This document shows positions 11,906-61,504 of a stretch of DNA of 64,000 nucleotides, piece by piece. Positions within the stretch are counted from its first letter, which is position 1. Each line of letters begins with the position of its first letter. The stretch covers positions 28,024-92,023 of the forward strand of contig CAYPBQ010000001.1 in the NCBI GenBank assembly GCA_964409035.1, in the 5' to 3' direction. This DNA comes from an uncultured Candidatus Saccharibacteria bacterium. GTDB lineage: Bacteria; Patescibacteriota; Minisyncoccia; Phycocordibacterales; UBA12088. The notes under the pieces were generated by a model that was given only the letters and a program-made list of their open reading frames with translations, made no database searches and had not been told where the DNA came from. Position numbers and translations under genes: made by a program.

Positions 11906-13378
11906 CTACTTAGAAAGATCAAGCACCTCATCAATGCGTATCTGCTCTACAAATTCTGGTACGTGCGAGACTAATATCATTGCCCCCTTGTACGCATCTA
12001 GCGCCTTAGCAATAACAGGTAGGTGTCTAAAGTTTATGTGGTTAGTTGGCTCATCAAGTATGAGAAGTCCCGGTCTTTCAAGTACAAGTCGTGCAAATGC
12101 CACAAGACCTTTTTGCCCCTCTGACAAACGACCGATTTTTGTTTTAATCATCTCTGCGTCAATCAAAAATCCCGCGGCAGTAGCGCGCAAACGCTCCTCT
12201 ACCTTTTGATCCATCACTTCAAGTAGTGATTCAAGTACCGTATGCTCAAAGTTAAGGGTAGAAAAATCCTGTCGATAGTAACCAATACGCACATCCCTCT
12301 CTAGCTCAACACCCTTAGCCTTTCCACTTGCGATACTCTCAAGCAACGTACTCTTGCCAATACCATTTGGCCCAACTAGTAGTAAGTGCTTATTTTTGTT
12401 TAATGATATATCAACTTTGTGTGTCACCACTTTATGATTTTTCATGGTGCTGAGCGAGGTGATATGCACCAATTTTCCTGAGAGCTCCTCCTGATGCGGA
12501 ATAGTAAATGGACGAATAGTCTTATCCTCCTTTCTCACCTCAACCATATCCTCTTCCATTTGCTCTGCCTTTTCTCTCATGCGCTTAGCAAGGAGTCGCA
12601 TCTGTCCGCCCTTATTTGCAAAAAAGTTTGCCTTGTCTTTATTCTCTTGCGCCGTTTTTGCAAGTTGAGCGTTTTTTCTGTTCTCCTTTTCAATTCGAGC
12701 ACTTATGTCTCTAAGTACATCAGTATAGTTACCCGCGTATTGCTCTACCTTTTTAGTGCGTACATCAAGGTATAAGACCCCCTCGGTAAAGGCATTAAGA
12801 AACTCAGTATCATGTGAGATAACAATGATTGATTTTTTGTAGTTTTTTAGAAAGTCAGTAAGGTGCGAGATGCCAGCTTTATCAAGATTATTAGTAGGCT
12901 CATCAAGGAGAAGAAGGTCTGGTTCTTGAATTAGTGCTGATGCTAAGAGTAGTCGCGCCTGTTGCCCACCTGAAAAGGTATTCATTATTCTGTCATGTAC
13001 TTTTTCATGCCCCTTAAGATGTACCACTTCTAGCACCTCATCTATACGAGGGTCGATATCATGTATTTTTTTCGGGAAGCACTTTTGAAAAAACTCTCTC
13101 ACAGAGAGCGTTAGCTCATCACGTGGAATCACTTGCCGCGATAGAGCAATAGACAATCCATGGGATATGTTTATTTTACCCTCCTCAGGAGTGTGTGTGC
13201 CCATCATGAGTGAAAAGATGGTACTTTTGCCCGCGCCATTTTGTCCCATTAGCGCAAGCTTTATTCCCCTTCTCACTGAAAAATCCACCGCATCCAAAAT
13301 GGGCTTATTGTGTCCAAACTCAAATGACACTTTTTCAAATGAAAGAATTGCTTCTGCTTTTGACATATGTACGTACAC
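11906..13378 (-). CDS. ABC-F family ATPase (two ABC domains, no TM domain)
   Basis: Two Walker A motifs (GQNGAGKST, GPNGIGKST), two LSGGQ-like signatures, and a charged linker between them. The start may be the Met at 13366. Confidence 0.85.
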   Translation of the reverse strand: MYVHMSKAEAILSFEKVSFEFGHNKPILDAVDFSVRRGIKLALMGQNGAGKSTIFSLMMGTHTPEEGKINISHGLSIALSRQVIPRDELTLSVREFFQKCFPKKIHDIDPRIDEVLEVVHLKGHEKVHDRIMNTFSGGQQARLLLASALIQEPDLLLLDEPTNNLDKAGISHLTDFLKNYKKSIIVISHDTEFLNAFTEGVLYLDVRTKKVEQYAGNYTDVLRDISARIEKENRKNAQLAKTAQENKDKANFFANKGGQMRLLAKRMREKAEQMEEDMVEVRKEDKTIRPFTIPHQEELSGKLVHITSLSTMKNHKVVTHKVDISLNKNKHLLLVGPNGIGKSTLLESIASGKAKGVELERDVRIGYYRQDFSTLNFEHTVLESLLEVMDQKVEERLRATAAGFLIDAEMIKTKIGRLSEGQKGLVAFARLVLERPGLLILDEPTNHINFRHLPVIAKALDAYKGAMILVSHVPEFVEQIRIDEVLDLSK

Positions 13379-27347: not shown

Positions 27348-28202
27348 TTACTCGTTGGTGGGGAGAGTTGCTGTTCCCTCTAACGCATCTTCTCCAACAA
27401 AGCGATAATATATTTTTTTTCCAAATCGCATATCAATGTACGCAATAGTAGCAAGGTTAATATCGCGCAAAGGTTCCTCCTTGAAGATGGTCATAATCAC
27501 ATCCGCAAGTGATGAAAAATCATCATGGAGGTTAATGCGTAACTCAGGACCATCATTAATGGCTAAAAATGCCTCTTGCTCATCCGAAGAAATGTTGACG
27601 CGCATTACTGGATAACCATTTGCAGATAAAAATGATACCAGCTCACTTACGTGTGTATATGTCGCAGGAGTGAGTAATTGCATTGAAAGCGGCGGCTTTC
27701 CTGTTTCGTCCTTGGTGTACTTTACATACACCGCATCAGAAAATGTGGGGGCAAGTGCATACCCCATGGCGGTCTCGTCGATGTAATAGCATGATTCATC
27801 TGAAAGACACCACAATGCATGAGGTTCTCTCTCTACAACTGCTATTTCAAGAGTCGTAAGATTGGTACGCTTTACTGCTACTTCCTTAATTCTTGGGAGT
27901 GCTTCAAGAATCTGAGACTCAATAGAAGCGATAGGAACAAGCACTACATTATTACGTGGAAATATAAACAGAAACTTTTGCGAAAGAATCAATCTAGCTT
28001 GCGCCTCTATGGTGGCTACCTCTTCCACATGATTACCTTGCACAGTAATAGTAGCAACCCGCCAAAAAGATAAATAGAGCGAATATACCGCAGCAATAAT
28101 CACCACACATATCCCCAAGAAAAATAGCCCGACTCGTACCAGAATCTTTTTTCTATATTTAGCTTTACGCTCAAGCGAGGAAAATGTATGCGGCCTCGGC
28201 AT
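27348..28202 (-). CDS. ftsQ: FtsQ/DivIB-like cell-division protein (POTRA domain)
   Basis: Basic N-terminus, a single TM, then ATITVQGNHV...LEIAVVEREP (POTRA). Confidence 0.6.
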   Translation of the reverse strand: MPRPHTFSSLERKAKYRKKILVRVGLFFLGICVVIIAAVYSLYLSFWRVATITVQGNHVEEVATIEAQARLILSQKFLFIFPRNNVVLVPIASIESQILEALPRIKEVAVKRTNLTTLEIAVVEREPHALWCLSDESCYYIDETAMGYALAPTFSDAVYVKYTKDETGKPPLSMQLLTPATYTHVSELVSFLSANGYPVMRVNISSDEQEAFLAINDGPELRINLHDDFSSLADVIMTIFKEEPLRDINLATIAYIDMRFGKKIYYRFVGEDALEGTATLPTNE

Positions 28203-37793: not shown

Positions 37794-39317
37794 CTATTGT
37801 GAACATGAAGCGGTTCTCTGTTGATTACAGTAAATAGAAAAGTGCGATTTTCCTGAGCCGAGCGTGGGTACAACTCTCACATTATCTGCAGAAATATTAG
37901 TACCTGCAAGTCTTGAAGCGGCTAGCAAATTATCTTTTTCATTTTGAGTGTTAACTTCCCACTCCGCCTTCATTCCAGCACTATTTGCTGCTGTTACCAC
38001 CTTATTAATATTTTGAAGCTCTGATTGTGTATAGTAGGAATCATTGTAGGACGGATTAGTAAAATCAAAATCCGCACACGTGCCATTACTATGACATGCG
38101 TTGGCATGATTTACTGTGTCGTATGCTGATGTCATAACTAATGGCTCTGAGCCCGCAGTATCTAGATTGGTTTTGAGAGTTGATAGCTTTGTATTGTATC
38201 CAGGATCAACATAACAGCTTCCACCAGTATATGAGCATCCGCTATTTGGGTATGTAGTAGACGGCTCAAGACCAGCAGGAGGAGTATTTGCTGGTGGAGT
38301 AGGATTATTTACAACCTCACCATTAATCTTATCAATTTCAGCTCGAAGCGAATCAATTTCTCCTCTAATTTCAGTACACCGCGCATACAGCGCTTCGCCA
38401 GCCACCACATTGTTACACCCTCTCAGTGCATACTCTCTTCCAAGCTCAGCTACTCGCTCAGTGTTTGCTTTTAATAACTCATCTCTTACTGCAGTATCAT
38501 ACGATCTAGCAGCTGCATTTCTTTCTTGTTGTAGTTGATCAATTTTGTTCTGAACTTCTGCACGGCAAATATTTCTATCTGCGAGGTTTTCTGATTGACT
38601 ATTACATGCAGCGAGTTGCCTATTGAGCTCTGAAATTTGTCTATCTAGTGATGCAATCTGATTTGCGAGCTCACCTGCTCTACCTCCATTCACTACCTGA
38701 CCAGCATTAGGATTTGGAAGGAGACTGCTATTTCTTCCATCATTTTGGCAAGCAATCGCGCTCACGTCAGCAAGCGATCTTCCTGCAAGGGTGTTGAGGA
38801 CGGTATTTATTACGATCCATGCACCAAGCACCGCAACAAAGCCAAAGAGTACATTCCAAAATATTCCTTTTGCTTTAGAAATGTTTCCTGGGTTAGTGCT
38901 GGAGGTAAGGTACAAAAATCCCGCATAGGTGAACATAATGCTAGCAAGAAGTACCGATACAAGAATCAAAAAATTAATTATCCTCTGTATAGTGCGGAAA
39001 AATTCGCATGGACCACAGCTACTTGTATCGCCGACATGATACCCTCTATTACATGTTACCAATCCATTTGTATTTTCATTAGCACCAAACTGTGTGTTCA
39101 AAATAATACTTCCATCTACCTGTGCTAGTTGCGAAGAATCCTCATCTGAAGACTCAAATACACTAATTACAGAATGAAGAGAGGTTGAAAAATCAAATGA
39201 AGGCAACGTAATATTTCCACCTTCACTCTTTTCAATCACCACGCCCGCCCCTGTGAGCAGGAAAAATTGCATCACAACTGCGGCAAAAATTATTTTTACT
39301 GATGGTGATTGCTTCAT
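37794..39317 (-). CDS. secreted or membrane protein: Cys-rich N-domain + TrbC/VirB2-like two-helix module + coiled coil + C-terminal putative Zn-peptidase (M15-like, H-x6-D) domain
   Basis: Signal/TM at the N-terminus. CNRGYHVGDTSSCGPCEF. Two-helix module IMFTYAGFLYL..NISKAKGIFWNVLFGFVAVLGAWIVINTV, alignable to the 54.4-57.1 kb pilin-like genes. Coiled coil at 200-330. C-terminal motif CHSNGTCADFD. Confidence 0.55.
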   Translation of the reverse strand: MKQSPSVKIIFAAVVMQFFLLTGAGVVIEKSEGGNITLPSFDFSTSLHSVISVFESSDEDSSQLAQVDGSIILNTQFGANENTNGLVTCNRGYHVGDTSSCGPCEFFRTIQRIINFLILVSVLLASIMFTYAGFLYLTSSTNPGNISKAKGIFWNVLFGFVAVLGAWIVINTVLNTLAGRSLADVSAIACQNDGRNSSLLPNPNAGQVVNGGRAGELANQIASLDRQISELNRQLAACNSQSENLADRNICRAEVQNKIDQLQQERNAAARSYDTAVRDELLKANTERVAELGREYALRGCNNVVAGEALYARCTEIRGEIDSLRAEIDKINGEVVNNPTPPANTPPAGLEPSTTYPNSGCSYTGGSCYVDPGYNTKLSTLKTNLDTAGSEPLVMTSAYDTVNHANACHSNGTCADFDFTNPSYNDSYYTQSELQNINKVVTAANSAGMKAEWEVNTQNEKDNLLAASRLAGTNISADNVRVVPTLGSGKSHFSIYCNQQRTASCSQ

Positions 39318-39330
39318 AGGTGTGTATTGA

Positions 39331-40848
39331 TTAGTAGTTTAAGTCAACATTTCCATCAGGAAGCTCTGCTGGGTTTACGGAATTAGGAATATTTGTACCA
39401 GAAGTGGTGGTGTTTGCTGGCTTTTGATTAGTATAGTACTGATTATAATAATTAACCCTAGCCACATAATTACGCGTCTCTTCGAGACCTCCTGGATTAA
39501 TTGAGCATTCATATGCGCGTGCACCTGGACAATCTGATGAGTCTGCTAGTGCTGGCTTTTTACCCGCATCATTTAGTTGATTGCCAGCGCCAGAATTGTA
39601 TGAAGCGATTAAATCATTAGTATTGCCAGAGCGAACGTTGGGGTTGTTAAGGTTTGCATTTAATACCTGGACTCCAACACGAATATTTGTCTGTGGATTA
39701 CGTAGCTCTTGTTCTATTTGCGCATCTGTTAGACCAGGAAAATACTGCCGTGCGGTACTAGGTAGTACCTGCATAAGACCAACAGCACCTGCTGGGCTTT
39801 TTGCATTAGGATTTCCACCGCTTTCAGCACTCATAATAGCTCTCACCAACTCTGGAGAAATGGGTACTCCTTGGCGAGCTAATTCTGCCTCAATAATTGC
39901 AGCGTATGAATTTGTATTGTTAGCAACTAGTGCTGCTCCCTCGGGGGTTATGTTTGCCTGTGGAATAAATACATTTGGATTTGTGCTTATAGGAGCTGTG
40001 CCTGGGATAGTGCCACCTGGAGGTGTGGTCGTGGGTGGTGCCCCCGCAAGCTGTGCTTGTAGTGCTGCTTTTTCCCGCTCTAGTTCCGTAATTCTCCTAT
40101 CTACTGTAGAGCAGAGATTTTGATCCGCAGGAGCGATGTCACCCGTGTCTGCTCCTCCTGCTCCACCAGCTAAGCAGTTCAACTTCTCCGCCCGTAGTAT
40201 TGCTATTGATTGATCTATATTTGCAATTTGTGCGCGTAGCACTGCAGCAGTATCAACAACGGCAGTTCCTGCACTTGGATTTGGAAGGAGGCTACTATTT
40301 CTTCCATCATTCTGGCAAGCAATCGCGCTCACATCCGTAAGTGATCGGTTATACAAAATATTTAGTACGGTGTTTACCACAATCCACGCTCCCAATACTG
40401 CAATAAAGCCAAATAGCACATTCCAAAATATTCCTTTTGCTTTAGAAATGTTTCCTGAGTTAGTACTGGAGGTGAGGTACAACATACCTGCGTATGCAAA
40501 CATGATGGTTGCAACAATTACCGCAATGACAAATGCAAAGTTTAACACCCGTTGAATAGTTGCAAGAAATTCACACGGTCCACAGCTACTTGTATCTCCA
40601 ACATGATACCCTCTATTACATGTTACCAATCCAAGAGTGTTTGTATCGGTGCCAAACTGTGGGTCTAAAATAATTTCTCCGCTCACCTGTGAAAGGTGAT
40701 CAGAGGGAGAAATGGTAGATATAACTGATGATACAGAGTTCGACAACGAAGGAAGTCCCCATGCGCCAAGCACAAGTACGAGCTGCGCCACCACCCCTAT
40801 TACCGCTACCCAAGAAGTCTTGTTCACACAATAAGAATAGCACGTCAA
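39331..40848 (-). CDS. paralog of the previous gene: Cys-rich N-domain + TrbC/VirB2-like module + coiled coil + C-terminal lytic transglycosylase (SLT) domain
   Basis: The same N-terminal 190 aa at ~70% identity. The C-terminus has IMSAESGGNPNAKSPAGAVGLMQVLPSTA (SLT catalytic Glu-Ser and the AGAxGLMQ motif). Confidence 0.7.
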   Translation of the reverse strand: MTCYSYCVNKTSWVAVIGVVAQLVLVLGAWGLPSLSNSVSSVISTISPSDHLSQVSGEIILDPQFGTDTNTLGLVTCNRGYHVGDTSSCGPCEFLATIQRVLNFAFVIAVIVATIMFAYAGMLYLTSSTNSGNISKAKGIFWNVLFGFIAVLGAWIVVNTVLNILYNRSLTDVSAIACQNDGRNSSLLPNPSAGTAVVDTAAVLRAQIANIDQSIAILRAEKLNCLAGGAGGADTGDIAPADQNLCSTVDRRITELEREKAALQAQLAGAPPTTTPPGGTIPGTAPISTNPNVFIPQANITPEGAALVANNTNSYAAIIEAELARQGVPISPELVRAIMSAESGGNPNAKSPAGAVGLMQVLPSTARQYFPGLTDAQIEQELRNPQTNIRVGVQVLNANLNNPNVRSGNTNDLIASYNSGAGNQLNDAGKKPALADSSDCPGARAYECSINPGGLEETRNYVARVNYYNQYYTNQKPANTTTSGTNIPNSVNPAELPDGNVDLNY

Positions 40849-51924: not shown

Positions 51925-53490
51925 TCAGCACTCAATACAAACATTATTTTTTGTATCTGTACCTTTCTCGCTCTCCTGTAGTATCTGCTCTATAGGTAGT
52001 GGTTTGTCTTGGGTATATGGCAGGTCATGCATGATTGCTATCTCTGCCTTTTGAAGCTCGGCACCAATATCAAGAAGGTGTTCAGGAAGTATAATAAGTT
52101 CTAACTGCGCAATTTTTTTAGCTACCTCACTAGCTGTTTTACCCGACACCGTGAGCAATTCATCACCACTTGGAGTTTTAAAATATGCAGTAATTTTTTT
52201 ATCTTTTGTACTAATGACAAACATGCCTCGCTTATCAGCACTAATTACTGGGTCAAATACAGCATGTGGCTCTCTTTCCCATATTGCGCACTCAACAAGT
52301 TTTTTAGCATCATCCCACTCCCCTTCATAAATATGCGCAGATTGCGAGGTAATTTGAAGACTCCCCATTGGCACGCCCACTTCTGTGGCTATTTTTTTGT
52401 GAAGCGCCCGCAGTCCAAAAGCATTAGGTAATGCGGCCTTAAAAATATCGTGACTCCGTGCGGTAACCAGCATGTGTAATTTTTTATTACTATAGAGTAG
52501 TTGAATGTGTGTGATGCATGGCGGCTCTTTTGAATCCTTATCTATTGCAGGAACTAGCGTAGTTGCGATAGCGCGCCTAGTATCAAGAGAGTCGTTTAGA
52601 GACTTTATAATGATTTCTTTTATTTGGTCGACATCGCCTTGCGTTGTGGGATACCGCATTAACCTATTTCCATACGTGTATGTCACCCCTTGAGGCATAT
52701 CAGCAGAAAGAAACACTGATTTATAGTGATTGATAGCATTCATACTTAGCCCAATAGTTTGCCGTACGCTGCTTGGTAAATCACTTTCAATCATTGGGTT
52801 ATCTGGATCCTCATCATCAACCACCCATGTCACTCCTATAAGCTCTCTTTGTTTGGTGCCATACTGTGTGCCCTTTATCGTTCCATACCTCATAATCCTA
52901 TCCACTACCCGTGTCCATGTAGAAAGCACCCCATTACCGCGCACCACAAAGCCAATATGCTCTGATGGAAATACATCTATCACCTCTGGTACCGCTTCAG
53001 CAAAGCGTACTGGCTCCATATATGGCAAAGCAGGAGTATCAGTGAGCTCACTAACAAAAATAGAGAGGTCTTCATCTGTGGTCTCTATGAGATTTACATG
53101 TGCGATTATTTTTTTAACCACCTCGATGTCAATTTCTTTCTCAATCTTAAAATCGGTACCTACTACCACCCGATCTTCAGTAACGCCATCATGCCACAGC
53201 GCAAGCAATATCTCTCTCCCAGATACACCAAAAGGACTACACGAAAGGGCGCCATGATTCCACAAGTATAGGGTGGTAATCTGCGGATTAAGTGCAAGAT
53301 TTCGCAATAGTATATTTACTCCTTGCCTGCTATATAGGGTACCTATAAGAGCAGCTTTTTTTAGCAAATCAGGGTGGGCATTAATTAGCTTTTCTGGCTC
53401 ATTCCATAATGTGCAAAAGCCAATACTTACGCCTTCACCAAGCCACACCTTGTACTTATCTGGTAGGTAGAGTTTATCGTGAGATATCAC
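51925..53490 (-). CDS. thymidylate synthase (ThyA)-family protein with a ~195-aa N-terminal extension and a ~100-aa C-terminal extension
   Basis: Core matches ThyA: GTQYGTK (cf. DRTGTGT), RRAIATT, the EPPC nucleophile region, ...ARSHDIF..GVPMGSLQ...SAHIYEGEW. Confidence 0.6.
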   Translation of the reverse strand: MISHDKLYLPDKYKVWLGEGVSIGFCTLWNEPEKLINAHPDLLKKAALIGTLYSRQGVNILLRNLALNPQITTLYLWNHGALSCSPFGVSGREILLALWHDGVTEDRVVVGTDFKIEKEIDIEVVKKIIAHVNLIETTDEDLSIFVSELTDTPALPYMEPVRFAEAVPEVIDVFPSEHIGFVVRGNGVLSTWTRVVDRIMRYGTIKGTQYGTKQRELIGVTWVVDDEDPDNPMIESDLPSSVRQTIGLSMNAINHYKSVFLSADMPQGVTYTYGNRLMRYPTTQGDVDQIKEIIIKSLNDSLDTRRAIATTLVPAIDKDSKEPPCITHIQLLYSNKKLHMLVTARSHDIFKAALPNAFGLRALHKKIATEVGVPMGSLQITSQSAHIYEGEWDDAKKLVECAIWEREPHAVFDPVISADKRGMFVISTKDKKITAYFKTPSGDELLTVSGKTASEVAKKIAQLELIILPEHLLDIGAELQKAEIAIMHDLPYTQDKPLPIEQILQESEKGTDTKNNVCIEC

Positions 53491-53510: not shown

Positions 53511-54185
53511 ATGAGACAGGGTAAATTTATAGTTATTGAAGGCACTGATGGATCAGGAAAAGGAACCCAATTGCAACTTCTCGACACATACCTAAAGGCA
53601 CACAACAAAAGATTTCAAGTAGTGGATTTTCCTCAGTACGACAATTTCTCAAGTGCATTTGTTGCCAAATACTTGAGGGGTGAATACGGCTCTGCAAAAG
53701 AGGTGGGGCCATACCGCGCATCACTTATGTATGCAATTGATCGCTATGACAAATCCTTTGACATTAAAAAATGGTTAGACAATGGCACACTTGTTCTTAG
53801 TAACAGGTATGTATCTGCAAGCATGGGTCATCAAGCAGGAAAGATACAAAACAAGAAAAAGCGAGATGAATACCTCTCTTGGCTTGTCGATCTTGAGTAT
53901 CGAATCTTTGGTATACCAAAGCCAGATGCCACAATACTACTCTACATGCCACCAGAGATAGGTCAGCGCCTAGTAGACAACAAGAAGGCACGAAGCTACA
54001 CCAAAGGTAAGAAGCGGGACATACATGAAGCTGATCTTACCCACCTGCGTGAGGCATCAGAGGCATTTTTGTACGTTGCCAAAAAATATAAGTGGCATGT
54101 GGTTAACTGCACCAACAATGGAGAGTTACTTTCAAGAGAGGAAATCCACCACGCAATACTAGCCATTATAAAAAAGTATATATAG
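53511..54185 (+). CDS. tmk: thymidylate kinase
   Basis: P-loop FIVIEGTDGSGKGTQ, DRY-like motif DRYDKS, and a lid region. Confidence 0.85.
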   Translation: MRQGKFIVIEGTDGSGKGTQLQLLDTYLKAHNKRFQVVDFPQYDNFSSAFVAKYLRGEYGSAKEVGPYRASLMYAIDRYDKSFDIKKWLDNGTLVLSNRYVSASMGHQAGKIQNKKKRDEYLSWLVDLEYRIFGIPKPDATILLYMPPEIGQRLVDNKKARSYTKGKKRDIHEADLTHLREASEAFLYVAKKYKWHVVNCTNNGELLSREEIHHAILAIIKKYI

Positions 54186-54193
54186 CGCATATC

Positions 54194-54290
54194 GCGATAC
54201 ATCGCGATATGTATATTACGAGTGACGCAAATCTGCCTATATCAAATATAGCGATATATCGCGATAGTGTGAGGGCTTTTAATCATGCAA
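54194..54290. repeat. cluster of ATATCGCGATA-type palindromes (3 copies) between tmk and tRNA-Lys
   Basis: catatcgcgatacatcgcgatatg at 54197-54220, and atatatcgcgatag at 54278-54291. Confidence 0.5.
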
Positions 54291-54312
54291 AAATTGCGCT
54301 ATATTGTTCCTA

Positions 54313-54385
54313 TCCGCTCGTAGCTCAGTTGGTAGAGCAACTCCCTCTTAAGGAGATGGTCGGAGGTTCGAATCCTCCCGAGCGG
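54313..54385 (+). tRNA. tRNA-Lys (anticodon CTT)
   Basis: Hand-folded: acceptor CCGCTCG/CGAGCGG, D-arm GCTC-AGTTGGTA-GAGC, anticodon loop CTCTTAA, T-arm GGAGG-TTCGAAT-CCTCC. Confidence 0.85.
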
Positions 54386-54396
54386 ACACGTAAGAA

Positions 54397-54426
54397 CAAA
54401 AAAACTGCCAGTTGGCAGTTTTTTTG
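54397..54426. terminator. bidirectional terminator aaaaaaactgccag-ttggcagttttttt
   Basis: A-run, hairpin, T-run. Lies between tRNA-Lys (+) and the first pilin-like gene (-). Confidence 0.65.
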
Positions 54427-54443
54427 TTCTATCACATATTATT

Positions 54444-54737
54444 TTATAGTGGTATTTCGCTTGGAAAATCAGACCCACTGTCTACCCTAAAGGTATCAAG
54501 TCCTACTCTGATAAGGGCAAATGATGACACCATCACAAAAAGCCCTACCAAACCCCACATCATATGTTGCTTTCCAGTCTCCCTCCCTGTTGAGCTATCT
54601 GCATTTCTGATGAACTCAATCCCACCCCATACAAATAGAAACAAGGCAATAACAGTAAGCGTTCCTATTATGGGGTTTATGATAAATCGATTGATATTAT
54701 CAATAAGCTGTATAAGTTCGAAAGGAAGTGGCTCCAT
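54444..54737 (-). CDS. TrbC/VirB2-like pilin-family small protein (divergent copy, no obvious signal peptide)
   Basis: Two hydrophobic helices separated by a short polar loop (..ALFLFVWGGIEFIRNADSSTGRETGKQHMMWGLVGLFVMVSSFAL..). Confidence 0.55.
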   Translation of the reverse strand: MEPLPFELIQLIDNINRFIINPIIGTLTVIALFLFVWGGIEFIRNADSSTGRETGKQHMMWGLVGLFVMVSSFALIRVGLDTFRVDSGSDFPSEIPL

Positions 54738-54760
54738 TTAACAAATAACCTTAAAAAAAA

Positions 54761-55135
54761 TTAAAATGTGAAGAGATTATTTCCCGTTACATATGGATTA
54801 GGCGCTCTGTCCTCAGCAGATACCCCAAACACATCTCTCAAAAACGCAACCAATCCCCAGATAGATGCAGCAACGAAGAGTGCAATAACGCCCCAGATCA
54901 TGAGGTTCTTTCCTTTCTCTTTATCCTCAGCATCACCAAGCATGTACTTTGCAAGACCCCAGAAGAAGAAGAGGAGAATTGCAGCAAAGGCAACGGGTAT
55001 AAGTACACCAACAACATTACCGATCTCCTGGACGAAGGCGACAATATTATCTGTTTGTGGCTGTGCAAACGCGACAAAAGGTACTAGTAAAAAAATTCCA
55101 AGTAATGAGGCGTTGATTTTAGTAATTTTTTTCAT
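54761..55135 (-). CDS. TrbC/VirB2-like pilin-family protein (signal peptide + two-helix core)
   Basis: Signal peptide, then IPVAFAAILLFFFWGLAKYMLGDAEDKEKGKNLMIWGVIALFVAASIWGLVAFLRDVFGV. Confidence 0.65.
   Translation of the reverse strand: MKKITKINASLLGIFLLVPFVAFAQPQTDNIVAFVQEIGNVVGVLIPVAFAAILLFFFWGLAKYMLGDAEDKEKGKNLMIWGVIALFVAASIWGLVAFLRDVFGVSAEDRAPNPYVTGNNLFTF
54823..54994. repeat. 172-bp block identical to 55229-55400 (a recent duplication or gene conversion between adjacent pilin-like genes)
   Basis: Direct comparison of the two stretches in the sequence. Confidence 0.75.
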
Positions 55136-55170
55136 TGAATGTTATTATTTCCTATAATTTAGTTGCAATT

Positions 55171-55545
55171 TTATTGAATACCTCTTTGCGGCACAGCCAC
55201 AGGGTTGTTAGTTTGATCAAGGTCATTAACCCCAAACACATCTCTCAAAAACGCAACCAATCCCCAGATAGATGCAGCAACGAAGAGTGCAATAACGCCC
55301 CAGATCATGAGGTTCTTTCCTTTCTCTTTATCCTCAGCATCACCAAGCATGTACTTTGCAAGACCCCAGAAGAAGAAGAGGAGAATTGCAGCAAAGGCAA
55401 CAGGTATAAGAATACTTATTACATTTGAAATACCTGTGACAAGATTATCTATATTAGTGAAAGTCACACCGGTACCCTGCCCTAGAGTGGTCTGTGGTAA
55501 TAAAAATAAACTTCCGATTAAGAGTGTTATTTTGCTTTTTATCAT
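55171..55545 (-). CDS. TrbC/VirB2-like pilin-family protein; its core is identical to the previous gene
   Basis: The 172-bp block 55229-55400 is identical to 54823-54994. Confidence 0.65.
   Translation of the reverse strand: MIKSKITLLIGSLFLLPQTTLGQGTGVTFTNIDNLVTGISNVISILIPVAFAAILLFFFWGLAKYMLGDAEDKEKGKNLMIWGVIALFVAASIWGLVAFLRDVFGVNDLDQTNNPVAVPQRGIQ
55229..55400. repeat. second copy of the 172-bp identical block
   Basis: As above. A third, ~85-90% similar copy lies at ~55640-55810. Confidence 0.75.
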
Positions 55546-55576
55546 AAAATGAGGTTATTTAGATAATTATCATCGA

Positions 55577-56002
55577 CTAAAGCGAAAGTACTTCTGGAGT
55601 AACTGTCGGTGAATTTTCGTCAGTTTCAGGATCGACACCAAATACTTCTCCCAAAAACGCAACCAAGCCCCAGATAGATGCTGCAACGAAGAGTGCGATT
55701 ACACCCCAGATCATGAGGTTCTTGCCCTTTTCCTTATCCTCAGCATCGCCAAACATGTACTTTGCAAGACCCCAGAAGAAAAAGAGAAGAATAAGAGCAA
55801 AGGCAATTGGTATCAAAATCCCAACAATCTCACTTACTGCAGATGCAATATCTACTAGACCATTTAAATCTTGCGCTCCCGCTACCAGTGGGAACATTAA
55901 AACAAGAGTTGCTACAGACCCAACAAATCTACTTTTTTTCTTTGTCATATAAAAGCTTGTAATGTTAATGCGCCGAAGCGCTACAGTAATATCTTTATCC
56001 AC
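55577..56002 (-). CDS. TrbC/VirB2-like pilin-family protein
   Basis: Core IPIAFALILLFFFWGLAKYMFGDAEDKEKGKNLMIWGVIALFVAASIWGLVAFLGEVFGV. Confidence 0.65.
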   Translation of the reverse strand: MDKDITVALRRINITSFYMTKKKSRFVGSVATLVLMFPLVAGAQDLNGLVDIASAVSEIVGILIPIAFALILLFFFWGLAKYMFGDAEDKEKGKNLMIWGVIALFVAASIWGLVAFLGEVFGVDPETDENSPTVTPEVLSL

Positions 56003-56066
56003 ATGATACCTTTACCTAGGGCATATGCAATAAATATGTGTGGATAACAATATTTGATTTACCAAG

Positions 56067-56441
56067 TTATATAGAGCTTCCAAAGCTCGGTATGGTAGAT
56101 CGCTCAAGGTTCCATCTATCATAATTTCCATCAACACCTATCACCTCTCTTAGGTATGCCGAGATGCCCCACACCGATGAGGCAACAAATAACGCTATTG
56201 TTCCCCACATTAATAACTCCTTTCCTTCTGTTTTTCCTTCCTCGCCAACAGAAAGAACAAATTTAGCGATACCCCACAGAAACACAAGCAGAATAATCGC
56301 AAACGCAACAGGAATCATGACCGCGATTACTCTTGAAAAGGCAATAAGTATAGATTGCACTGTTTGTGCATGGGTAACCAACGGCACCATGGGTAATAGT
56401 AATGTGCTATAGCCCAGCAATGATGAGAAAATTCTTTTCAT
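56067..56441 (-). CDS. TrbC/VirB2-like pilin-family protein
   Basis: Start taken at the internal ATG (MKRIFSSLLG...signal). Core IPVAFAIILLVFLWGIAKFVLSVGEEGKTEGKELLMWGTIALFVASSVWGISAYL. Confidence 0.6.
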   Translation of the reverse strand: MKRIFSSLLGYSTLLLPMVPLVTHAQTVQSILIAFSRVIAVMIPVAFAIILLVFLWGIAKFVLSVGEEGKTEGKELLMWGTIALFVASSVWGISAYLREVIGVDGNYDRWNLERSTIPSFGSSI

Positions 56442-56443
56442 AA

Positions 56444-56698
56444 TTACCCAAAAAAAGTTTGTCGTAAGATTCGAACCAGCCCCCACACCGTGCCGAGGAT
56501 AAACATAATGATCACCCCCCAAAAGATGCGGTACTTCCCTTCTGAGCGCGCCTTACTATCACCCGCAGAAAATATAAACACCGCCACTCCCCAAAAAAAG
56601 AGTAGTAGTGCCGCGCTAAACGCAAGGGTAATACCAAGCCCCGCAATATCGGAAATGATACACAGTATTTCTCGTAGATCTCCTCCTGAACATCCCAT
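56444..56698 (-). CDS. TrbC/VirB2-like pilin-family small protein (84 aa, no signal peptide)
   Basis: ..LAFSAALLLFFWGVAVFIFSAGDSKARSEGKYRIFWGVIIMFILGTVWGLVRIL. Confidence 0.55.
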   Translation of the reverse strand: MGCSGGDLREILCIISDIAGLGITLAFSAALLLFFWGVAVFIFSAGDSKARSEGKYRIFWGVIIMFILGTVWGLVRILRQTFFG

Positions 56699-56717
56699 AA
56701 TATATTGATTACACGCC

Positions 56718-57098
56718 CTATATCGTACCGGGCGCTATGTTGTTAACGGTCGCTCGTATAGCGGTAGATAATGCATATGAACCGAGGATAAGTAGCGCAC
56801 CAATAATGGTATAGATAAGATACTCCTTTGCCTGAGAAATTTTAGCAGGGTTGCCTTGTGCGGTAAGAAACAGAAAGCCGGTGTAGACAATAAAGAGCAC
56901 CGTAATAGGAAACATAATTGCCATAAAGGCAGAAAGTACAACCCTAAGAAGCCCTGTCATGTCAGTTATCCCTCTTTCCTCTAAGGGATTTCTGAGCCCT
57001 GGCCCAGCAAGAGCGGGATCAACAGCAGAAAAAAGTAGCGCGAGGAAAAACACAAACACCAGTACTGAGGAAAGAATATACTGTCGTTGTGTGTTCAT
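56718..57098 (-). CDS. TrbC/VirB2-like pilin-family protein
   Basis: Signal/TM, then ..MAIMFPITVLFIVYTGFLFLTAQGNPAKISQAKEYLIYTIIGALLILGSYAL.. Confidence 0.55.
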   Translation of the reverse strand: MNTQRQYILSSVLVFVFFLALLFSAVDPALAGPGLRNPLEERGITDMTGLLRVVLSAFMAIMFPITVLFIVYTGFLFLTAQGNPAKISQAKEYLIYTIIGALLILGSYALSTAIRATVNNIAPGTI

Positions 57099-57119
57099 AT
57101 ATATATTTATAGTACGCCA

Positions 57120-58454
57120 CTAGAAGGTTTTCTTCAATGACCCTTCTGCAAGCCCCATTGCACTACTTATATCTTTTCTTCCGCTTGATATGTCGTCAAT
57201 CATGGTGCTGAGTATTCTATCAGTGGTACGTGGGTCAGAATCAAGCCATGTAAAGGTATTAAGCGCGAGATTGTACGCAACCGCACCAAATGGATCAGTT
57301 GGCGGTGAGGCGAGCAATGTGCGGTGAAGTGGCGGCAACCCCGATGATGCAGACCAACTCTTGAGTGCAATCGCATCAGTAAGCCCACGAGCAGCAGCGT
57401 ATGCTCTTGTGGCATTTGGTGATGATTTTGGTATTGCAAAGCCCGTAATGGTGCCATAAGTAACACTGCGAGTTGCTCCACGTATGCGTGGCATAGGGCC
57501 GATATCAAAGTTAAGATTAGGATTTGCTTCGCGCAGTGCTTTGTACTCACTTGCAAATCCAAAATATACCCCAAGGTCACCCGCCAAAAATGCTTGCCTC
57601 GATTCAGGAAGCGCTCTATTCCACGTGTACACACTTCGGACTGGATCAGAAAATTCTGTATAAAAACGTACCGCAGCAGGACCTCCGCTAAGCGCTACAT
57701 CTCCCGCAGAAGAACTGGGCTGCGAAAGATTTACCTCAACAGAGCCATCGGGTAACCAACTAACCACTGGTATCTTTAGTTGAAGTAGTAGTGTTGATAG
57801 TACTGCCTTTGCATTGGTCACATTATCATACCCCCCCAGTGAGGTAGCAGCTTGGAGTACATTTTGATTATTATCAACAATCGTGAGCTTCTCTACCAAT
57901 CCCACAAACTCATCCCAATACTGTGGTGGGTTAGCTAGTCCGTTTGCAAAAAATAAATCCCTATTCCAGTACATAACAAGAGGATCAACAGAAAAAGGTA
58001 TTGCGAGTGTCCCCTCAGGGCGCAAGAATACTTCTGCCCCTTCTATGTACTCTGTTCTAAATGTTCGCTCTGGTAATGTCTCATAAGAGACAGGGCGAAT
58101 TTTATCTGCCTGTTTGAGGAGTGCTCCCTGGTCAATAAGAAATAGATCGGGTCCGCGCCCTGCCGCTATCGCATCTACCACTTCGGCATAATACACATCA
58201 CTTTCAATTTGCTTGTACGTTACACCCTTTAGATACTCTCTATCAGAGCTGAGGCTGCTGAGGTAATCCCCCATCTCAGCCTCAGAAAGTGTCCCCCATA
58301 TTGCAATATCACCGACCGCCTCTGTTTCCGCCCCTCTAAAAAGAGCAATTGCAGCAGTACCCGCAACGATAAGTATCCCAAAGATAATGAGAACGACGAT
58401 ACGAAATACTTTTGGTTGATCTTCAAACATATTACTTTTTGAACAATAATCCAA
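57120..58454 (-). CDS. ABC-transporter extracellular solute-binding protein (family-1-like) with an N-terminal membrane anchor
   Basis: N-terminal TM. Binding-protein-like motifs GPDLFLIDQG, MYWNRDLF, and a Trp-rich C-terminus. Confidence 0.55.
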   Translation of the reverse strand: MDYCSKSNMFEDQPKVFRIVVLIIFGILIVAGTAAIALFRGAETEAVGDIAIWGTLSEAEMGDYLSSLSSDREYLKGVTYKQIESDVYYAEVVDAIAAGRGPDLFLIDQGALLKQADKIRPVSYETLPERTFRTEYIEGAEVFLRPEGTLAIPFSVDPLVMYWNRDLFFANGLANPPQYWDEFVGLVEKLTIVDNNQNVLQAATSLGGYDNVTNAKAVLSTLLLQLKIPVVSWLPDGSVEVNLSQPSSSAGDVALSGGPAAVRFYTEFSDPVRSVYTWNRALPESRQAFLAGDLGVYFGFASEYKALREANPNLNFDIGPMPRIRGATRSVTYGTITGFAIPKSSPNATRAYAAARGLTDAIALKSWSASSGLPPLHRTLLASPPTDPFGAVAYNLALNTFTWLDSDPRTTDRILSTMIDDISSGRKDISSAMGLAEGSLKKTF

Positions 58455-58959
58455 AGTGATGCGCTCCAGGATCTATCTCTTCAAGCAGCGTGCATCCTAG
58501 GCCCTCAGCTATCTTTTTTATTTCTCCACCCTTCACAATATGCTCTGGCTGTGGACCAAGCCCCTTATATGACTCCTTCCAGTCTATAATAAGTAACTTG
58601 CCGCCATTTTTGAGAACACGAATACCTTCCTGCACCAACACCTGCTTATGCTCTATTTGAAATAGCGTATTTGAAATTATTACCGCATCTGCGCAATTAT
58701 CAGGAAGCCCCGATCCATGCTCATGCTCAAGATCACCAACCATCGTCTCAACATTAGCCAGTCTGCGCAGTCGTGCCTCTTTTGCTACATGACGCACTAA
58801 TTCATTTTGAATATCTACCGCGTACACTATCCCCGCCTCGCCCACTGCTCGCGCAGCTTCAAATACATAATGCCCAGAGCCAGCACCAAGGTCTACCACC
58901 CTCTGGCCGTACGCGAGTTTAAGTATGCCGATTGCCTCTTTTGGATTGAGAAACCGCAT
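58432..58959 (-). CDS. class I SAM-dependent methyltransferase
   Basis: Motif I VVDLGAGSGHY, an acidic residue in AVDIQ, and motif III-like KNGGKLLIIDW. Confidence 0.75.
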   Translation of the reverse strand: MRFLNPKEAIGILKLAYGQRVVDLGAGSGHYVFEAARAVGEAGIVYAVDIQNELVRHVAKEARLRRLANVETMVGDLEHEHGSGLPDNCADAVIISNTLFQIEHKQVLVQEGIRVLKNGGKLLIIDWKESYKGLGPQPEHIVKGGEIKKIAEGLGCTLLEEIDPGAHHFGLLFKK

Positions 58960-59023
58960 GTGTACAAGGAGTATAGCGCACTTTTATATATCGCGCGCAA
59001 TTTTATCAACAGAGTTGTAGATG

Positions 59024-61504
59024 TTACAGACAAATAAGCGAAGCAATAGCATCTCCTGGGCGCATCTTCATAATACGCACACCTTGTGTAGCACGTGACA
59101 GTGATGGAATCTCAGCAAGTCCAGTTCTGATAACCTGCCCCTTTTGTGACATTACCACTAGCTCACTTAACTCTTCATCAACTACACGCAGCGCCATTAT
59201 CTTTCCTGTCTTTGCAGTTACCGACGCAGCCTTTACACCTGATCCTCCACGTTTTTGTATTTTATATTCATCAATAGGTGTTTTTTTGCCGTACCCATTT
59301 TCAGACAACACCAAAAGCTCGGCTTTAACCGCATCCTTAGCTACTACTTCAGAGCCGATTATCTTGTCGCCTTTTTTGATGGTCATACCCTTTACGCCAG
59401 CTGCAGCTCGTCCCATTTCGCGTATATCATTTGCGCCAAATCGGATTGATTGACCATTTGATGTCACAAGCACGATAGAATCTTGCTTAGTTACAAACGC
59501 CGCACGCACAAGCTCATCACCTGCACCAAGCTTGATTGCGTTAAGCCCGCTTCGTCTAACTTCATAAAAATCTTTTGCGGGTGTGCGTTTAGCCACACCA
59601 TCTTTTGTTATCATAAAGAGTGATAGTGCTTCCGCTTGCTTTATCTCCTTTGGCATTGCCAAAATACTGGTGATGTTCTCCCCCTCACCAAGAGGAAGGA
59701 AATTAACAAGTGCCTTGCCCTTGGTTGAGCGTTTACCCTCAGGTATGTCATACATCTTTGTTTGGTATGCCTTACCTTTATTAGAGAAGAACAGCACATC
59801 ACTATGCGTTGACGCGGTAAGAAGTGTAGTGACAAAATCTTCCTCCTTTGTACCCATATCAATCACTCCCACGCCTCCACGCTTTTGCGCCTTATACTCT
59901 GCAGGATTGGTTCTCTTTATATAACCACCTTCAGTAAGCACCAATACATTTTCTTCATCTGCAACCAAATCCTCTGCAGACATTATTTTTACCCCTGACT
60001 TTACTATGCGAGTCTTTCGCTCATCACCATACTTCTCTCTATGAGCGCCAAGCTCGTGCTTTACCACAGCCAATATTTTAGCTGCGCTTGAAAGGATATC
60101 TTTGAGCTTCTTTATAAGAGCCTGTACTTCTTTGAGTTCATCCTCAATCTTCTTTCGCTCAAGTCCCGCAAGCTTTTGAAGACGCATTTCCAAAATGGCA
60201 TTTGCTTGTCGCTCAGAGAAACTAAACTTCTTCATGAGGTTTACCCGAGCATCATCAACATCCTTTGACTGTTTGATGAGTTTGATTATTTCATCAATGT
60301 GATCAAGCGCCTTTGAAAGACCAAGGAGAATGTGTTCTCGTTCTTCTGCAATACGCAAATCATATTCCGTGCGTCTTCGTACCACCTCTTTTCGGTGAGC
60401 AATAAACTCAACAAGCACCCCTTTAAGAGATAGCGTCTGAGGCACTCCATCAACAAGCGCCACCATGTTGAGGTGAAAGGTATCCTCTAGTTGTGTGTGT
60501 TTGTATATCGCGTTCAACACTTTTTGCGGTTGCGCGGTTGATTTAAGCTCGATAACAATACGCACATCTTTTGTTGATTCGTCTCTTAGGTCACGAATAC
60601 CTTCAATTTTTTTGTCTCGTACTAAGTCGGCAATCTTTTCAAGCAGGTCAGATTTATTTACTCGATACGGTATTGACGTGATGATAATTGCAAATTGCCC
60701 CTTCTTGTCTTCTATAATTTCTGCTTCACCCCTACAAACAATACCGCCACGTCCAGAGGCATATGCCTGCTTCATTTCCTTTTGGTTATAGGCAACAGCG
60801 CCAGTTGGAAAATCAGGTCCTTGTATATAAGTAAATATGTCATCTATGGTTGCATCAGGATTATCAATTAGATGTACTGTGGCATCGATAACCTCCTTCA
60901 TGTTGTGTGGAGGGATGTTGGTTGCCATACCTACGGCAATACCAAGCGTGCCGTTTAACAGTAGGTTTGGCACTGCTGCCGGAAATACTATTGGCTCCTT
61001 TCTGGTGCCGTCATAGTTTGGTCGCCACCCTACAGTGTCTTTTTCTAGGTCTTGTATAAGCTCTGAAGAAAGTCGAGATAATTTCGCCTCTGTATATCGC
61101 ATAGCAGCCGCAGGGTCACCGTCAAGTGATCCAAAGTTTCCTTGTCCTAGCACAAGTGGATACCGTGTTTTGAAATCTTGTCCAAGCTGTACCATCGCAT
61201 CATAAATGGCGCTATCTCCGTGCGGGTGGTACTTTCCCATCACATCTCCAACTACCGCTGCAGACTTTCTAAATTTAGCTCCCGCTGAAAGTCCCATTTG
61301 CTGCATAGTATACAAAATACGTCTATGCACTGGCTTTAGTCCGTCTCGCACGTCAGGGAGTGCTCTTGAGGTAATTACGCTCATTGCGTAGTTAAGGTAT
61401 GACTCCTTCATCTCATCAGCAATAGAACGAGCTACCACATTTACATGTGGAATTTTTTCTGAATTATCTTCTATTGGAGTGCTGTCGTTCTTTTTCTTGG
61501 GCAT
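59024..61504 (-). CDS. gyrA: DNA gyrase subunit A
   Basis: [27 protein letters not shown] with the active-site Tyr region, and a C-terminal beta-pinwheel with GyrA-box-like repeats. Confidence 0.9.

Follow-up and report, generated by a model that had tools for sequence, protein, structure and literature searches.

A tandem array of seven T4SS_pilin-family genes next to a solute-binding-protein-like gene in an uncultured patescibacterial genome

Seven genes of the T4SS_pilin family

The DNA analysed here is a stretch of 64,000 nucleotides (hereafter the window) from a 192-kb contig of an uncultured Candidatus Saccharibacteria bacterium ([GenBank:CAYPBQ010000001.1], positions 28,024 to 92,023; assembly GCA_964409035.1). 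An earlier note, written from the sequence alone, described in it seven consecutive minus-strand genes for TrbC/VirB2-like pilins. The open reading frame (ORF) listing indeed contains all seven, and these co-directional genes fill positions 54444-57098 of the window. Read in the direction of transcription, the first is g7 (56718-57098, 126 aa), a pilin-like gene of the type here called C0, with a signal peptide and two transmembrane (TM) segments. It is followed by the short pilin-like g6 (56444-56698, 84 aa) and by the pilin-like g5 (56067-56441, 124 aa). Next come three paralogs of what we call the major type: g4 (55577-55948, 123 aa; the penultimate type, or C3), g3 (55171-55545, 124 aa) and g2 (54761-55135, 124 aa). 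The array closes with the short g1 (54444-54737, 97 aa), of type C1. The spacing between neighbouring genes is 2-35 nt, with the sole exception of the 118 nt between g5 and g4.

For two genes a start codon inside the longest ORF is the likely one. The longest ORF of g4 runs over 55577-56002 (141 aa), with the likely start at the ATG at 55948. That of g5 runs over 56067-56522 (151 aa), and here the ATG at 56441 is preferred because the g5 ortholog in a sister genome is called at 124 aa; this start also abolishes a 79-nt overlap with g6. With the likely starts the gene sizes change from 84-151 aa to 84-126 aa.

The best Pfam match of all seven proteins is PF18895 (T4SS_pilin, with T4SS for type IV secretion system). 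Five of them score above the gathering cut-off of 26.6 bits (g3, 42.7; g4, 41.0; g2, 40.8; g7, 35.9; g1, 27.7), while g5 (24.3 bits) and g6 (19.4 bits) fall under it, yet hidden Markov models (HMMs) derived from the array recover both, and their orthologs are conserved. All 38 close homologs match PF18895 as well, and three of the 38 also match TrbC/VirB2 at E <= 0.01 (best 4.4e-6). With a subfamily profile, the top sequence in PDB is the pKM101 pilin TraM (E 0.0098). NF045849, a pilin-like family of Mycoplasma integrative and conjugative elements (ICEs), is the only NCBIfam family matched by six of the seven genes, at 16.4-30.1 bits and hence below its cut-off of 40 bits. In a search of representatives, the family comprised 13,868 clusters at 50% identity (E <= 1e-3).

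The AlphaFold2 (AF2) model of g2 is a two-helix hairpin (residues 28-66 and 69-103; mean predicted local distance difference test score, pLDDT, 81.8) behind a signal-peptide-like N-terminus. Inspection by eye shows, in five of the seven proteins (g2, g3, g4, g5 and g7), an N-terminus rich in K/R, a stretch of hydrophobic residues and, ahead of Q or G, an AxA-type site; in g1 and g6 no such N-terminus was seen. The signal peptide, two helices and connecting loop of a VirB2-type pilin are thus present in the g2 model, and the architecture described by the earlier note, a signal peptide in most members followed by helix, loop and helix, was borne out. The core FWG...GK...WG..ALFV..S.WG, which the earlier note had given as common to all seven, is visible in the alignment of g2-g6 and is degenerate in g7 and g1. 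A holin-like or other small membrane-protein family had also been named as an alternative. It found no support: a phage holin was rejected, as PHROGs returned no family at E <= 0.01 for any of the seven proteins and Pfam no holin match. These data show that the seven genes encode homologous two-helix membrane hairpins of the T4SS_pilin family.

The top-scoring members of the family at large (P0163-P0197 and similar) are 200-370 aa long and carry two or three pilin domains per ORF. Such ORFs may represent genuine fusions; alternatively, gene calling may have read through from one closely packed or overlapping array gene into the next.

Fixed gene order and concerted evolution within the array

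A profile-guided scan of species-representative genomes yielded 79 related loci. The homologs and syntenic loci lie in metagenome-assembled genomes of Patescibacteria, mostly of the Paceibacteria lineages Zambryski-, Kaiser-, Adler-, Taylor-, Wolfe- and Campbellbacteria. Nearly all of the 79 loci carry same-strand arrays detectable with HMMs made from the window genes, mostly of 5-7 genes (range 1-10). The earlier note had considered a multiplicity of this degree unusual, and this does not hold: 5-7 genes is the norm in these relatives, and arrays of 2-11 genes have been published (PMC12102498).

Clustering of the array members reveals a common order, which begins with one or two genes of the g7 type and one of the g6 type, continues with variable middle types and ends with a g2-type gene in penultimate position and a short g1-type gene without signal peptide. 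The C0 (g7) type heads the array in 76 loci and the C1 (g1) type is last in 72 of 77 cases; C0-type members mostly have three hydrophobic segments and C1-type members two. The best matches of g4, g3 and g2 are all found at the penultimate array position (for g4, in 56 loci), and because of this we regard the seven genes of the window as five ancestral types, one of which is triplicated.

The closest comparison is offered by a syntenic sister genome (GCA_964562615.1, locus L001) with six array genes. Four members have 1:1 orthologs there, namely g7 (92% identical), g6 (96%), g5 (88%) and g1 (99%). Their ratios of nonsynonymous to synonymous substitution rates (dN/dS) are 0.049, 0.044, 0.055 and 0.012, respectively, at dS 0.75-1.4, compared with 0.011 for GyrA. 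Given such high ortholog identity and low dN/dS, g1 and g6 are real and strongly constrained genes despite the absence of a signal peptide. These results show that strong purifying selection acts on g7, g6, g5 and g1, which are ancient subunits tied to particular positions.

The g2-type copies, three in the window and two in the sister genome, behave differently. An exact repeat of 173 bp is shared by g2 (54822-54994) and g3 (55229-55401), one base longer than the 172-bp block at 100% identity that the earlier note had reported for these neighbouring copies. It spans TM1, the loop and TM2 (approximately residues 48-104 of g2). The third copy, in g4 (55635-55831), is 85% identical over 197 nt and 88% identical over a strict 150-nt core (18 differences), which agrees with the earlier figure of about 88%. 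If the per-site identity were 85-90%, the probability of 173 identical bases in a row would be between ~3e-11 and 5e-7. Outside the block the DNA identity of g2 and g3 falls to 33-67% (5′ 150 nt) and 40-47% (3′ 90 nt), and the N- and C-terminal parts of g2-g4 are only 16-48% identical, as against 88-99% for the other four members. The g2-g4 slot, as judged from these comparisons, is evolving much faster than the rest of the array.

The earlier note took the block as a sign of very recent duplication. A plain recent tandem duplication without conversion, with g2 and g3 as young copies, would fit the exact block, the equal gene lengths, the ~407-bp spacing and the one copy more than in the sister genome. 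A young duplicate should, however, be uniformly similar along its length, and the identity of g2 and g3 drops sharply on both sides of the block. Moreover, the terminal parts of the two genes each match the sister genome best: the mature N-terminal part of g3 is closest to one sister copy, r_d (48%), and the N-terminal part and tail of g2 to the other, r_e (45% and 42%), and these counterparts lie at dS ~0.9. In the strict 150-nt core, g2 and g3 show one difference and r_d and r_e show four, compared with 19-22 between the genomes; the two sister copies carry a 150-bp identical block of their own, which differs from that of the window at synonymous sites. We therefore consider a recent duplication very unlikely. 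Since the cores group by genome and the ends by ortholog, the pattern is one of concerted evolution: the comparison of the two genomes shows old paralogs whose TM core has been homogenised by intra-array gene conversion after the split from the sister genome. The ongoing conversion that the earlier note had offered beside amplification is supported in this form, as non-reciprocal homogenisation of the core.

The same mosaic of identical core and divergent ends occurs independently in four other loci (L006, L043, L027 and L013), sometimes between non-adjacent genes. In two further loci, L046 (10050-11206) and L062 (10001-10942), neighbouring paralogs share exact blocks of 367 and 327 nt that extend over all of the N-terminal part; their differences lie in the C-tails, which are glycine-rich or truncated. 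These were not counted as clean cases of conversion, as L046 contains an N-run, so that assembly problems are possible there, and L062 a truncated copy.

An assembly artefact, with identical blocks produced by collapse or chimeric joining of strain variants, must also be weighed. The 173-bp repeat exceeds typical short reads, the seven-gene version is found in one record only, and Logan unitigs break exactly at the edge of the repeat. An exact-sequence look-up of g2 in the contig index gave no match, and g4 (P0008) retrieved Logan contigs. Two Logan assemblies, L083 (SRR14271332) and L084 (SRR14271331), are 100% identical to the window, so that these two runs are the likely source of its reads, and both end at 55372. 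This position lies k-1 = 30 nt inside the g3 repeat copy, as expected of a k=31 de Bruijn graph at a true repeat with two left contexts. The repeat is thus a branch point in the read graph, which argues against an artefact and allows a copy number possibly above two. In addition, the unique segment formed by the g3 tail, the spacer and the g2 head demands at least two copies, and an analogous mosaic is present in three separate sister-lineage records (L001, L002 and L003) and in other species. An artefact is accordingly extremely unlikely.

The fast-evolving slot also has an upstream region of its own. The gap before the penultimate-type gene has a median length of 98.5 nt in 78 arrays, versus 2-22 nt for the other gaps. 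In the window it is the 118-nt gap between g5 and g4 (55949-56066), which contains two perfect 9-mers of the DnaA-box consensus, TTATCCACA, at 55995-56003 (+) and 56039-56047 (-). Only four perfect matches exist in the 64 kb, and this inverted pair makes up half of them. In the sister genome a single perfect TTATCCACA box occupies the same place. Across relatives the motif is present at <=1 mismatch in 35 of 66 such gaps, usually just after the upstream stop codon and in either orientation; it is 20-fold denser there than in the rest of the loci, and perfect matches are 117-fold denser. A second motif, AAAAATGGTCGTT, is found ~40 nt before the start codon in 13-15 gaps and is absent from the window. 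There is no general excess of RNA structure in these gaps (median z -0.3), and the hairpin predicted in the gap of the window is the inverted DnaA-box pair itself. We read the gap as a putative conserved internal promoter or operator of the major-type gene, and we infer that DnaA may bind at its boxes. A replication origin at this site was considered and rejected, since there are two boxes only, no inflection of the cumulative GC skew, and the arrays sit at ~57-63% of two complete chromosomes among the related loci.

These patterns raise the possibility that the array is a variation system, in which the paralogs are interchangeable major pilins whose differential expression or recombination would change the surface of a filament for host contact (host range, evasion). 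Such variation had been proposed in the earlier note. It is consistent with the near-identical cores and divergent, predicted outward terminal parts of g2-g4, with the change in copy number between the sister genomes, and with the recurrence of recombination tracts in several lineages. The virB2 arrays of Anaplasma, with hypervariable N- and C-terminal regions and host-specific expression, are a precedent, and adaptation to host strains has been suggested for patescibacterial arrays (PMC12102498). On the other hand, four of the seven genes are 1:1 orthologs with dN/dS <=0.055 that keep fixed positions across ~77 species, and the locus is a single co-directional operon with neither silent-cassette nor invertible-promoter architecture. 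Furthermore, the six tandem PF18895 genes of Southlakia epibionticum (SEML1_0014-0019) are all essential by transposon sequencing (Tn-seq) (Wang et al. 2023, PMC10633639), so that they are not redundant alternatives. Variation is plausible for g2-g4, but the other members, conserved and position-specific, point to non-redundant subunits, as in Southlakia. For the array as a whole we regard a variation system as possible, if rather unlikely.

Genomic setting and proposed function

The first gene of the module is not a pilin gene. It lies on the minus strand at 57120-58454, 21 nt from g7, and encodes a membrane-anchored solute-binding-protein-like product of 444 aa in its longest ORF (436 aa in the ortholog). 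The order on this strand is gyrA, methyltransferase, binding-protein gene and array. The protein matches the Pfam domains SBP_bac_8 (1.5e-18) and SBP_bac_1 (4.3e-17). Its AF2 model (pLDDT 88.6) has an N-terminal helix at residues 14-40, followed by a two-lobe fold of the maltose-binding protein (MBP) type, and the top Foldseek matches are YcjN and maltodextrin- or oligosaccharide-binding proteins (E ~5e-21). Its dN/dS against the sister genome is 0.023, and it has more than 1,500 homologs at ~40% identity. In 68 of the related loci a homolog stands immediately upstream of the array on the same strand, and most of the others are cut by contig ends; a search started from the binding-protein homologs likewise reaches the downstream PF18895 genes. 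The binding-protein gene and the first pilin ORF are a median of 4 nt apart and overlap by 4 nt in many loci, being in this way often translationally coupled.

At the other end, a hairpin, AAAAAAACTGCC-AACT-GGCAGTTTTTTT, can be read from the sequence at 54398-54425, between the stop codon of g1 and a convergent tRNA-Lys gene (54314-54387). With its perfect 12-bp stem and A7/T7 flanks it looks like a bidirectional terminator. An Rfam scan of 54200-58600 gave nothing above threshold except tRNA-Lys. In a scan of 54100-59200 with sigma-70 promoter and terminator consensus sequences, the sites were no commoner than in shuffled sequence, and the hairpin after g1 was missed.

Taken together, we favour, with a probability of roughly 0.6, a conserved chromosomal operon for a heteromeric surface structure of the VirB2 type. 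This would be the form that the patescibacterial VirB2-like pilin array takes in Paceibacteria-type genomes. The operon would run from gyrA through the methyltransferase and the membrane-anchored MBP-like binding protein to the seven PF18895 genes and end at the terminator hairpin. Its small proteins would insert N-out/C-out, with Sec-dependent cleavage in five of seven. A VirB4-type T4SS with genes elsewhere in the genome would then extract them, and they would be built into a single heteromeric surface filament or channel. The penultimate type may be the major, separately promoted subunit, with g7, g6, g5 and g1 as minor or base subunits. In the T-pilus, the VirB2 termini are on the outside and the loop lines the lumen. 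By analogy, the packing core of g2-g4 would stay interchangeable through conversion as the outward termini vary, so that one structural unit has three surface variants. Probably the co-transcribed MBP-like protein acts together with this structure on the cell surface, where it might for instance bind a host-derived glycan.

Several observations weigh against this interpretation. First, no T4SS gene accompanies the array. When the 47 ORFs of the window (the seven array genes and 40 others) were compared with Pfam, no VirB4, VirB6, VirB3/PrgI, VirB8 or VirD4 domain was found, in agreement with the earlier note, which had seen no secretion ATPase or channel gene nearby. For the related arrays, too, the conserved neighbours up to 7 kb from either end include no T4SS gene; they are S1, GyrA, the methyltransferase, Lactamase_B_3, IF-2, DUF4446, an aminotransferase, a trypsin-like protein, ClpB and YceG. 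A VirB2-type pilin encoded together with VirB4 is therefore seen neither in the window nor in the neighbourhoods of its relatives. Because no such gene is nearby, it is family membership and the Saccharimonadia, and not this genome, that connect the array with a T4SS. Second, the TrbC/VirB2-like assignment of the earlier note holds for PF18895, but in PF04956 (TrbC/VirB2; cut-off 27.9 bits) only g2 of the seven genes finds a match, which is sub-threshold (19.3 bits, E 1.3e-3) and weakly suggests relationship rather than membership. Third, Foldseek found no significant match for the g2 model in PDB (best E 1.4), a two-helix hairpin being too simple for the method, so that this outcome carries no information either way. 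Fourth, g1 and g6 seem to lack the signal peptide of a pilin. Fifth, the mosaic of core and termini could arise neutrally, as conversion persists only where constraint keeps sequences similar. Finally, we infer rather than observe the roles of major and minor subunits and of the binding protein, and to our knowledge a patescibacterial VirB2-type filament has never been seen.

In favour of the operon reading, a pilin was found in 1,948 assemblies, near virB4 in only 1,135 and away from it in roughly 800 (PMC12102498), and VirB4 itself is present in 2,417 of 3,035 (80%) Patescibacteria assemblies.

The missing filament and T4SS genes would also suit a T4SS-independent membrane device, i.e. a two-TM oligomer that acts with the MBP-like protein as, for instance, a minimal uptake or sensing complex, with "pilin" being a family name only. 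The binding-protein gene abutting the array in so many loci, its strong conservation class-wide, and the lack of any adjacent permease or ATP-binding cassette (ABC) ATPase gene agree with such a device. However, in Saccharimonadia the same family lies within an essential T4SS cluster, the sequences show affinity to TrbC/VirB2 and pKM101 TraM, and the adjacency may be mere synteny within a long gyrA-led operon. We also know of no transport system built from VirB2-like hairpins. A device of this kind is in our opinion improbable. An importer of the ordinary type, an ABC system dependent on the solute-binding protein, was rejected, as the binding protein is accompanied by neither permease nor transporter ATPase: there is no BPD_transp permease in the window, no permease or ABC ATPase is among the conserved neighbours of the related arrays, and the only ABC_tran protein of the window (11906-13378) is a soluble double-ABC protein ~44 kb away.

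A bolder variant of the surface structure that we favour would be a distinct organelle, in which a heteromeric VirB2-type tube and a glycan-binding receptor dock on the host and draw material from it. Its major subunit would be expressed from an internal DnaA-box promoter tied to the cell cycle, and conversion would fix its core while the termini diversify. We hold this to be doubtful. If it were true without the dnaA-proximal T4SS, or with only a loose connection to it, the VirB2 fold would have been put to a new use.

Two other loci in the window may be mentioned. Two adjacent minus-strand paralogs of ~505 aa (37794-39317 and 39331-40848), flanked by tRNA genes and ClpB, lie at a distance of 14 kb from the array. 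In each, a Cys-rich N-terminal part is followed by a PF18895 domain, then by a coiled coil and last by a C-terminal domain. The latter is an SLT lytic transglycosylase (VirB1-like) in one and, by eye, peptidase-M15-like (H-x-x-G-x-A-D) in the other. Both have the look of cell-wall hydrolases with a VirB2-like hairpin as anchor. The other locus is a minus-strand gene at 51925-53490, adjoining thymidylate kinase. It encodes a protein of 521 aa (conserved at 88% identity in the sister genome) with a thymidylate-synthase-like region and a C-terminal PterinBD-DUF4346 part.

Comparison with known systems

A large part of bacterial diversity belongs to the Patescibacteria, which are host-dependent. 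In the one species tested, the patescibacterial T4SS and its pilin array are essential. In the sampled Paceibacteria-type genomes the array forms a highly conserved operon of its own, outside the T4SS cluster and with the gene of a sugar-binding-type protein at its head. The array has a fixed subunit order and one fast-evolving, duplicating "major-type" slot with its own conserved upstream region, in which the core, presumably buried, is in concerted evolution and the presumably exposed ends diverge. These points bear on whether the structure is a heteromeric pilus, on the identity of the major subunit and on where specificity for the host may lie; the basic classification is unchanged.

The pilins of conjugative systems, VirB2, TrbC, TraA and TraM (PF04956; T-, F- and N-pilus), resemble the array proteins in having a signal peptide, a helix, a short charged loop and a second helix, in a mature length of ~70-100 aa and, weakly, in sequence. 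In those systems one pilin gene is found per system, inside a virB or tra operon. The array proteins score below the PF04956 threshold, and polymerisation with phospholipid to form an extracellular filament belongs to the definition of the canonical class. The NF045849 protein Mbov_0395 is likewise a small two-TM protein of a monoderm conjugation system (MPF-FATA type), but it is encoded by a single gene inside an ICE, and the array proteins score 16-30 bits against its cut-off of 40.

Closer parallels in gene arrangement are the virB2 paralog clusters of Anaplasma phagocytophilum and A. marginale, with 8-15 copies (PMC3556328), and the amplified trwL genes of the Bartonella Trw system, as cited in PMC12102498. 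They too are tandem paralogs with a conserved signal peptide and two hydrophobic helices, their copy number varies by strain, and their diversity lies near the mature N-terminus and near the C-terminus. However, those clusters belong to diderm MPF-T systems of intracellular animal pathogens and have an adjacent virB4, whereas the array in the window comes from a monoderm ultra-small bacterium, belongs to the distant family PF18895 and has no adjacent ATPase gene.

The nearest relatives are the patescibacterial arrays themselves. In a recent survey, 441 VirB2 arrays with 2-11 PF18895/PF04956 genes were reported from 383 Patescibacteria assemblies, with a mean within-array identity of 25% and a maximum of 54% (Quinonero-Coronel et al. 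2025, PMC12102498). An array was defined there as at least two such genes in tandem or one gene apart; the window has seven adjacent ones. The six Southlakia genes adjoin VirB6-, VirB4- and PrgI-like genes (PMC10633639), and a 2025 review sees in that array the first indication that a monoderm T4SS may carry a pilus (PMC12857230). Our array shares with these the Pfam family, the tandem co-directional genes of ~85-185 aa, the divergent paralogs, the chromosomal location and the lack of a relaxase context, so the kind of feature is already known. It differs in its position, not beside virB4, virB6 or prgI but behind an MBP-like gene near gyrA, and in having three members that are 55-65% identical overall with 100%-identical cores (exact in g2 and g3), above the reported maximum. 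Neither intra-array gene conversion nor linkage to a binding protein is mentioned in PMC12102498. The linkage to the binding protein, the recurrent conversion of the core and the gap with DnaA-box-like motifs are thus unreported, and as novelties they are modest.

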